A stretch of DNA of 64,000 nucleotides from Mustelus asterias (Eukaryota). Both the position numbers and the translations under genes were made by a program. Below the pieces are notes generated by a model. The model did not search any database. It was not told the origin of the DNA and saw only the letters and a list, made by a program, of their open reading frames with translations. The stretch spans positions 186,001 to 250,000 of the forward strand of contig NW_027590198.1 in assembly GCF_964213995.1 (NCBI RefSeq), read 5' to 3'. Below, in pieces: positions 57,299 through 59,219 of the stretch. Each line of letters starts with the position of its first letter. Position 1 is the stretch's first letter.

Positions 57299-59219
57299 CA
57301 AAGAACAAAGAACAATACAGCACAGGAACAGGCCCTTCGGCCCTCCAAGCCCGCGCCGCTCCCCGGTCCAGGATTGAATCCTGAATCCAGGATCCCCGCC
57401 CAATTTTCCAGCCTATCTACATACCAATATCCTATCCACCGAGCTGTCCCTCACAGCTACGATGCTTTGTTCATCACAACCTATTAACTCACCCCCACCC
57501 CCCCATTCCAGACCATGTGATCTCCAGGGAGAGGCGAAAACCCAGAGTGAAAACCCCAGGGCCAATATGGGGGAAAAAAAATCTGGGAAATTCCTCTTCC
57601 ACCCCCTGAGGCGATCGAAACGAGTCCAGGAGATCACACTGGCCCTGATCGGAAAATGCTTCCCAACCCTATTCATTTCCACTTCCACGAACACCATATG
57701 AATTCCCTGCCCCCGAGACAGGTTCCCAACTATCCGCAGTCTCGCTCTGTACTGGCACCAGCAAGATGATCATAGAATGAAGCCTTGAAACGAGAAATAA
57801 GGAACAATTAGCCCGCGCCGCTCCCTGGTCCAAACTAGACCACTCTTTTGTATCCCTCCATTCCCATTCCGTTCATATAGCTGCCTAGATAAGTCTTAAA
57901 CGTTCCCAGTGTGTCCGCCTCCACCACCTTGCCCGGCAACACATTCCAGGCCCCCACGACCCTCTGTGTAAAATATGTCCTTCTGATATCTGTGTTAAAC
58001 CTCCCCCCCTTCACCTTGAACCTATGACCCCTCGTGAACGTCACCACCGACCCGGGGAAAAGCTTCCCACCGTTCACCCTATCTATGCCTTTCATAATTT
58101 TATACACCTCTATTAAGTCTCCCCTCATCCTCCGTCTTTCCAAGGAGAACAACCCCAGTTTCCCCAATCTCTCCTCATAACCAAGCCCCTCCATACCAGG
58201 CAACATCCTGGTAAACCTCCTCTGTACTCTCTCCAAAGCCTCCACGTCCTTCTGGTAGTGTGGCGACCAGAACTGGACGCAGTATTCCAAATGCGGCCGA
58301 ACCAACGTTCTATACATCTGCAACATCAGACCCCAACTCTTATACTCTATGCCCCGTCCTATAAAGGCAAGCATGCCATATGCCTTCTTCACCACCTTCT
58401 CCACCTGTGACGTCACCTTCAAAGATCTGTGGACTTGCACACCCAGGTCCCTCTGCGTCTCTACACCCTTTATGGTTCTTCCATTTATCGTGTAGCTCCT
58501 CCCTACATTATTCCCACCAAAATGCATCACTTCGCATTTATCAGGATTGAACTCCATCTGCCATTTCCTTGCCCAAATTTCCAGCCTATCTATATCCTTC
58601 TGTAGCCTCTGACAATGTTCCTCACTATCTGCAAGTCCTGCCAGTTTTGTGTCGTCCGCAAACTTACTGATCACCCCAGTTACTCCTTCTTCCAGATCAT
58701 TTATATAAATCACAAACAGCAGAGGTCCCAATACAGAGCCCTGCGGTACACCACTAGTCACAGGCCTCCAGCCGGAAAAAGACCCTTCCACTACCACCCT
58801 CTGTCTTCTATGACCAAGCCAGTTCTCCACCCATCTAGCCACCTCCCCCTTTATCCCATGGGATCCAACCTTTTTCACTAGCCTACCATGAGGGACTTTG
58901 TCAAACGCTTTACTAAAGTCCATATAGACAACATCCACGGCCCTTCCTTCGTCAACCATTTTGGTCACTTCTTCAAAAAACACCACCAGGTTAGTGAGGC
59001 ATGACCTCCCTCTCACAAAACCATGCTGACTATCGTTAATGAGTTTATTCCTTTCTAAATGCGCATACATCCTATCTCTAAGAATCTTCTCCAACAACTT
59101 CCCCACCACGGACGTCAAGCTCACCGGCCTATAATTACCCGGGTTCTCCTTCCTACCCTTCTTAAATAACGGGACCACATTGGCTATCCTCCAATCCTCT
59201 GGGACCTCACCTGTGTCCA
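57299..59219 (-). mobile_element. 5'-truncated young CR1, long-3'UTR type, with an intact 461-aa RT frame
   Basis: ORF 57835-59220 is uninterrupted and carries all RT motifs. Confidence 0.95.

Follow-up and report, generated by a model that had tools for sequence, protein, structure and literature searches.

The window analysed here (the whole stretch of 64,000 nucleotides) holds, on its minus strand, a CR1-type LINE copy whose 3' untranslated region (UTR) contains what looks like a piece of the element's own reverse transcriptase (RT) coding sequence, and this locus raises the question of how such an echo came to stand in a UTR and whether it, or the insert to which it belongs, does anything for the element. 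The host element presents RVT_1 and Exo_endo_phos domains, and its ORF1 gives GDSL-like matches under the cut-off; the CR1-type label is that of the first-pass annotation and is accepted on architecture, without a tree. The features discussed in the text are collected in Table 1.

Table 1. Coordinates of the host element, its 3' ends and the parts of the insert, in window numbering
Feature	Position	Strand	Remarks
Truncated ORF2 at its 5' side (RT domain and C terminus)	57835..59277	-	480-aa frame; RVT_1 E 1.3e-37
Source segment of the echo in the RT coding sequence	58542..58598	-
RT echo, left arm	57369..57378	-	corresponds to RT 58542-58551
RT echo, right arm	57398..57425	-	corresponds to RT 58571-58598
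Hairpin in place of the RT middle	57378..57393		inverted (57378-57385, 7/8) and direct (57386-57393, 8/8) copy of the 8-mer 57367-57374
Spacer	57426..57507		faint collinear likeness to RT 58599-58702; mostly skipped in one X15 contig
Structured core	57508..57648	-	small hairpin and ENE-like arm, closed by a basal helix (57516-57525 paired to 57629-57638)
Double-ENE-like arm, sense RNA	57530..57597	-	three helices (lower, 6 bp, 5 bp) alternating with two U-rich loops and capped by a 9-nt loop
Working 3' end	57300..57348	-	short-repeat tail 57300-57317 and 31-nt terminal stem-loop segment 57318-57348
Distal copy of the 22-nt 3'-UTR repeat	57349..57370	-	22/23 identical to 57810-57832
Proximal segment resembling a decayed 3' end	57796..57832	-	tail-like 13-mer 57796-57808 joined to the proximal UTR repeat 57811-57832
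Second cassette-bearing 3' end	36655..37257	-	97.8% over 603 columns; echo 36724-36780, ENE-like arm 36884-36956
Third cassette-bearing 3' end	8628..9233	-	96.4%; echo 8697-8753
Cassette-less copy of the same family	54974..56150	-	single UTR repeat
Cassette-less copy of the same family	33155..34613	+	single UTR repeat

Five 3' ends of this CR1-type family are present in the window. In three of them, a 440-nt insert (57371-57810 in the copy under study, hereafter the cassette) is flanked by two copies of a 22-nt UTR repeat, and the other two have one such copy and no cassette. The alignment of the ORF2 copy in Table 1 to the other copies breaks off near 59220. The bodies of the cassette-bearing copies are 97.7 to 98.8% identical to one another and 94.9 to 95.8% identical to those of the cassette-less copies; since the former are more alike among themselves, the cassette has a single, recent origin, and its copies form one group that constitutes a young subfamily.

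Other elements of the window can be mentioned here. One cassette copy is nearly full length (36655-41154), with an ORF1 that shows weak GDSL/SGNH matches; this copy is broken, because its endonuclease and RT fall in separate frames. A second CR1-type family, 71% alike, occurs at 60512-61967; it shares the tail and stem-loop but differs in its UTR and lacks the cassette. A 267-aa frame at 51720-52523 resembles, by eye, the end of a Penelope-type RT/endonuclease ORF. Furthermore, immunoglobulin-type exons (C1-set, V-set) lie amid many LINE fragments: immunoglobulin constant exons, then T-cell-receptor-like V segments, were recognized at 449-1709, 16150-16536, 18234-18617 and 19852-20355, two of these segments being confirmed by Pfam and the rest read by eye.

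In an ungapped comparison of 57369-57422 with RT 58542-58595, the left arm matches at 10/10 positions, the middle at 6/19 and the right arm at 23/25; the local score of 69 compares with a shuffle mean of 30.7 (sd 4.3), and none of 300 shuffles scored as high. We could thus confirm the first-pass annotation in its description of an echo with matching arms at identical spacing. The codons of the source, IDRLEIWARKWQMEFNP(D), lie inside the RVT_1 ORF, and the echo is found in all three cassette copies of the window. The right arm extends to 57425 in the copy at 8697-8753 and in the public sequencing runs X15 and X16, and over these 28 nt it matches at 24 positions in the 57369 copy and at 26 in the 8697-8753 copy.

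The arms are closest to the RT of their own family. In particular, the left arm is matched 10/10 by four of the five own-family RT copies and 9/10 by the fifth, compared with 6 to 7 of 10 in four other CR1-type copies, and the right arm gives 23 to 26 of 28 against own-family copies and 17 to 22 of 28 against other CR1 families. It follows that the complementarity of the arms to the cognate CR1 RT, previously claimed, stands, the own family being matched best of the families in the window, and the arms derive from the cognate RT. Another CR1 family as the donor of the arms was rejected on the basis of the poorer match of the four other CR1-type copies present in the window. Since the first two letters of the left arm (57369-57370) also belong to the 22-nt UTR repeat, a 2-nt microhomology may be recognized at the joint; short as it is, we take it as weak evidence.

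The 19-nt middle was also confirmed as a hairpin, with the refinement that the hairpin begins one base inside the left arm (57378-57393). The 8-mer of which it contains an inverted and a direct copy (57367-57374) crosses the joint between UTR and RT and is not present in the element body (57834-59220). An inverted-plus-direct arrangement of this kind was obtained in 0 of 200000 shuffled middles and in 43 of 200000 random 19-mers of the window, draws that may include the cassettes themselves. Being made from a junction-spanning 8-mer, the hairpin is younger than the UTR/RT junction, and it appears to have been copied from the junction once this existed. According to the available text of one study, local template switches generate such inverted repeats without selection, and matches below 12 to 13 nt are often due to chance (PMC5453318). 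Each 8-mer falls below this length, and therefore the case for the hairpin relies on both copies jointly. In all three folds of the sense UTR, the hairpin region forms a separate domain directly upstream of the terminal stem-loop.

The working 3' end of the cassette-bearing copies is common to the cassette-less copies, and its terminal hairpin is present in the sense-UTR fold. At its far end, the 440-nt insert looks like a second 3' end that has decayed and lacks the 31-nt stem-loop segment. The tail-like 13-mer at this position matches at 11/13 letters in the 57796 copy and at 12/13 in the other two cassette copies; by inspection, the allele 57801A, fixed in X15 and X16, would bring it to 13/13. 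At 12/13 or better, the 13-mer occurs 11 times in the window, twice at the same site in the other copies, eight times at CR1 3' ends and once (10920) in an unrelated place. A gapped alignment test of the tail-like region was not significant (182/1000), and the support is given by the in-register count of the 13-mer. On the sense RNA, the cassette region reads as a decayed 3' end, about 370 nt without an identified donor, 57 nt of RT and the working 3' end; the segments of the chimera that were traced, namely the UTR end, the RT piece and the tail-like remnant, are directly fused.

These elements and the arrangement thereof make it probable, in our judgment with good confidence, that the RT echo and its hairpin are a template-jump scar, left by the building of a chimeric 3' UTR in the founder of the subfamily. 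A template-switch remnant had been the fallback explanation of the first-pass annotation, and it is favored by the cognate arms, by the junction-built hairpin and by a divergence of the arms that corresponds to their age. Single and double template jumps of LINE RTs are documented in the accessible portions of two reports (PMC3414825, PMC2104539). During synthesis of the cDNA (+ strand, from the tail), copying would begin at the normal 3' end and proceed for about 70 nt, then jump at the 2-nt microhomology into the element's own RT, of which about 57 nt would be copied. A local fold-back or slippage would rewrite about 14 nt, the junction being copied once inverted and once direct to give the hairpin; about 370 nt of foreign sequence would follow, before a return to a CR1 RNA at the tail repeats, where the 31-nt stem-loop segment is left out. 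By a variant route, read-through from a full CR1 over flanking DNA into a short deleted CR1 piece (a tandem locus) would yield the same product.

We infer the order of these events. The loss of the proximal stem-loop would force priming at the distal end, so that the cassette could not be dropped; we infer this lock-in by analogy, because a 3' stem-loop is essential for the mobility of the zebrafish L2 element, as stated in the text available for it (PMC4176376). We propose that the echo itself requires no function and hitch-hikes in the subfamily.

The alleles of the arms were considered in public sequencing runs. All 23 listed runs consist of contigs without strand information, and cassette variants were read in four of them, two of which (X15 and X16) are presumably RNA, for 40 of 273 variant rows, per site and without haplotypes. 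In X15 and X16 (organisms H and I), the RT letter at 57420, 57423 and 57425 accounts for about 100% of the depth (3 and 21 to 22 contigs), and contigs with RT-type arm letters continue into cassette-specific sequence. In X1 (organism A, the best-matching run), the RT letter makes up 0.02%, 26% and 47% of the depth at the same three positions, and all five RT copies of the window retain the original letters there. The right arm of the 57369 copy differs from RT at four positions, all true mismatches, with no wobbles, in an antisense duplex. Over both arms, the divergence from RT is 4/38 in the 57369 copy, 2/38 in the 8697 copy and 1/38 with the listed X15/X16 alleles, comparable in size to that of the two UTR repeats from each other (1/23) and to that between subfamilies (4 to 5%). 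The arms thus seem to be conserved no better than the age of the subfamily predicts and to behave like a young remnant; the RT letters kept in X15 and X16 also fit selection on the arms in organisms H and I.

In a single X16 contig, 57361 is fused to RT 58542, with the same joint and an RT-like continuation, and this contig may represent the ancestral form or a later recombinant of the echo with RT. In X13 (organism G), the cassette appears as about one contig with a depth of 5. The runs X21 to X23 come from the same samples as X5 (organism B) and X11 (organism E) and contain 0.00 of the cassette words, compared with 0.61 to 0.75, a discrepancy that suggests cross-contamination in some public runs. 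Organisms B to G were left out of the carrier count.

The second, weaker echo reported earlier (57651-57665 versus 58058-58071) is present as letters, and an excess over chance was not shown for it. Comparison of 57635-57810 with the element body gave a score of 33, equalled by 24 of 300 shuffles and with the best match elsewhere, and that of 57600-57810 with 57990-58300 gave a score equalled by 111 of 1000; a 50-nt segment hand-picked round the second echo was equalled by 0 of 1000 shuffles, a value uncorrected for the choice of the segment. The interpretation of the whole cassette as a decayed ORF2 was rejected, its likeness being no greater than chance. Extension of the first echo through the spacer to 57516 was equalled by 4 of 1000 shuffles when anchored, and two off-diagonal segments of the body outscore it; because unrelated parts of the body do so, the copied RT piece is taken as 57 nt.

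Relatives of the cassette were also sought outside the window. Viral contigs gave nine loci for a 16-mer (taken as chance), none for the ENE pattern and no RT relatives; metagenomes gave none for a 22-mer and nine distant RT loci; prokaryote genomes gave no homologues. A donor of the 370-nt middle was not found in these viral, metagenome and prokaryote searches. One of the distant metagenome RT loci (L015:1732) presents a loose U-run/C-run/G-run/U-run pattern.

In the 36864-37005 copy, the structured core of the cassette has a z relative to shuffles of -3.43 (sense strand) and -3.58 (opposite strand), an equal performance of both strands that counts against the ENE reading given below. On the sense strand of the ORF, the core includes an arm that resembles a double ENE, described in the text available from two sources as a pair of U-rich internal loops with short helices between and on either side of them (PMC13541005, PMC6379651). 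The arm ends 227 to 231 nt ahead of the 3' end of the element. Its lower U-rich loop is formed by 57588-57592 with 57535-57540 and its upper one by 57573-57581 with 57547-57553. The lower loop is short, with three U on the 5' side and two A at the 5' start, and an extra U in the run of the upper loop is a common allele. Three of the four loop-closing pairs are G-C, and the exception, which closes the upper loop from below, is A-U. The polarity of the G-run and C-run strands of the core is common to other ENEs. The Evade ENE requires G-C pairs flanking its U runs, as reported in the accessible part of its description (PMC12501189).

A descriptor of this arrangement, written after seeing the sequence, finds matches confined to the cassette and to its sense strand, with three single matches in two copies and the double form in one of three copies; no double was obtained in 100 shuffles of the window, 20000 of the cassette and 20000 of the core, values to be read with the post hoc nature of the descriptor. 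In the copy at 8628..9233, one substitution disrupts a pair of the middle ENE helix. When the core is folded in isolation, the double-ENE layout is the minimum-energy fold in two of the three copies. In the full sense UTR (ViennaRNA, a model that leaves triples and U-U pairs outside), the ENE helices have a probability of at most 0.05 and a hairpin rich in G.U pairs is preferred; with the same model, forcing the ENE fold costs 1.9 to 13.3 kcal/mol in 12 context tests. The free MALAT1 ENE forms U-U pairs, according to the portion of the source at hand (PMC6633196). By eye, 57557-57564 in the apical stem-loop of the arm and 57640-57647 in the flank of the basal helix are eight perfectly complementary bases, which might form a pseudoknot or act as a switch in competition with the outer part of the basal helix.

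The tail of the element is U rich and its UTR has no poly(A) signal, so that any poly(A) to be bound has to be added at signals farther downstream; signal-like hexamers occur within 1.5 kb downstream in two of the three cassette copies. In X15 and X16, contig depth (which is not copy number) is higher over 57490-57689, which includes the core, than over 57440-57489 and 57690-57789, and it is flat in X1; one X15 contig omits 57420-57493 and retains the core. The excess hints at other subfamilies, or a donor, sharing the core and not its flanks. We give about even odds to the sense-strand core being a double ENE, a stability element that clamps poly(A). In read-through transcripts, it would capture the poly(A) tail in U.A-U triples and thereby slow deadenylation, and the captured core is likely, on this model, to be the working part of the cassette.

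It is possible to hypothesize, with a probability of roughly 0.45, that this CR1 subfamily, whose host is probably a cartilaginous fish, took up a ready-made double ENE by a template jump, was locked into keeping it by the loss of the old 3' stem-loop, clamps the poly(A) of read-through transcripts and primes internally at its repeat tail. The first-pass annotation had suggested a self- or competitor-targeting RNA, in which CR1 mRNA would be bound at the DRLEIW...FNPD codons by both arms of a + strand transcript, with cleavage or recruitment left to the core next to them. The arms are indeed cognate, their duplex is feasible (-62.8 kcal/mol), the + strand core persists in the fold of the whole cassette and RT-matching alleles are retained in X15 and X16; nevertheless, the evidence makes such a guide RNA highly improbable. 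The X1 lineage carries three arm changes that break pairs with an unchanged RT, and the sequence of the junction explains the hairpin. Moreover, full-length pairing of an antisense read-through with the cassette-bearing RNA (-115.9 kcal/mol) would be stronger than the arm duplex, and therefore the arms would be redundant and contribute nothing to self-targeting; with other CR1 families, a poor fit of the arms is reflected in duplexes of -32 to -46 kcal/mol. The covariation of arms and RT that had been suggested as a check did not appear: with 40 of 273 rows read, three arm positions differ between X1 and X15/X16, and the RTs of the window are unchanged in five of five copies; independent CR1 families with a cassette of their own were looked for and none was found. 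There is no ribozyme match in the Rfam search of the core, in which no family came near its gathering score, and a hammerhead-like CUGA becomes CUGU through 57609 A>T, a change that X15 and X16 show in about 100% of the depth. A Pol III antisense unit was discarded, since the B-box-like 9-mer downstream of the arms (57613-57621, + strand, in the small hairpin of the core) has no A box and is likely due to chance; a T4 run lies within the right arm.

An alternative that gives the echo a job on the sense RNA or cDNA would have recurrent template switching or gene conversion preserve its likeness to RT, or would see in the hairpin a spacer presenting the 3' stem-loop. The X16 joint of 57361 with 58542 could be such a recombinant, the hairpin region is a domain of its own just upstream of the terminal stem-loop in three of three sense-UTR folds, and the arms would be far better kept than the rest if the extension to 57516 were real homology. 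However, that extension is unproven, the arms drift from RT in X1 and the cassette-less copies transposed without any echo, so that we consider this alternative quite unlikely. The scar may also be true and the whole cassette a neutral passenger, the core being an ENE or a chance structure in the donor, idle in CR1, with the subfamily spreading for other reasons. Folding of the full UTR disfavors the ENE fold, the middle-helix pair is broken in one of the three window copies, and the subfamily is so young that copy identity is uninformative on selection, all of which agree with a passenger. On the other side, the core depth above that of the flanks in X15 and X16 and the X15 contig that keeps the core speak against it, contig depth being a weak measure, and the layout is very unlikely from composition alone; we regard the passenger explanation as somewhat unlikely.

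The echo itself is most likely an ordinary scar, yet a record of how the subfamily was assembled, and the core is the lead of greater interest. We found no report in the literature of an ENE in a vertebrate LINE, a provisional statement, as the supplements of ENE surveys may list animal elements. In the text available for them, the approximately 200 surveyed ENEs are mostly of plants and fungi, and in a plant LTR element ENEs make the RNA more stable and the element more mobile (PMC12501189). A 2026 review of triple helices does not mention vertebrates, fish or non-LTR elements; in a 2026 survey of CR1 (PMC13343379), neither a hairpin nor a triple helix was present among the matches listed in the part available, and nothing related was found in the literature on CR1, sharks, ribozymes and retrotransposons. 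If the captured double ENE is true, it would be an ENE in a vertebrate non-LTR retrotransposon, and in a LINE without a poly(A) tail it would imply dependence on polyadenylated read-through RNAs that is limited by deadenylation. Carrier and non-carrier sister subfamilies would then offer a natural experiment on RNA stability and LINE success, and the ENE idea is directly testable because sister copies 95% alike exist in both states, cassette-bearing and cassette-less. Should the core prove to be something other than an ENE, the locus would be a routine chimeric LINE.

Among known systems, the closest to the proposed scar are LINE template-jump chimeras, namely the R2 SIDEs and the R2/snU12 variant (PMC3414825) and the tripartite LINE chimeras (PMC2104539). 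As far as the available text of these reports goes, they likewise fuse different RNAs or distant parts of an element to a LINE 3' end, and one jump may found a subfamily. Different from them, the foreign piece is here part of the 3' UTR, where it separates a working 3' end from a decayed one, and the cassette-bearing element retains ORF2 and includes in the cassette a piece of its own RT. The hairpin resembles short local template-switch mutations as presented in the consulted text of PMC5453318, where clustered differences arise from reverse-complement copying of adjacent sequence and leave a hairpin; the fragments here are of 8 nt each, under the high-confidence length, and reverse transcription and DNA replication are indistinguishable as their source.

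Minimal type I hammerheads of Penelope elements and retrozymes, as described in the available sections of PMC4209133 and bioRxiv 10.64898/2026.07.22.740005, share with 57606-57626 the presence of CUGA, GAAA and GUC in this order. However, a hammerhead on the + strand was rejected at this position, where we could recognize no helix I partner and no proper helix II, the spacing of the core is wrong and the A of CUGA is not conserved.

The putative double ENE differs from those known in transposons of plants and fungi (TWIFB1 of rice; Tycowski 2016, Torabi 2021, via PMC13541005 and PMC6379651) and from the Evade ENE (PMC12501189) in that it resides in a vertebrate non-LTR element lacking a poly(A) tail in its genomic copies, has a short lower loop and is known from sequence and folding. 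With the same systems, within what the accessible text of these sources describes, it shares the helix-ENE-helix-ENE-helix succession, the C-G pairs beside the U runs and a place within the 3' UTR of a transposon transcript, not far from the end.
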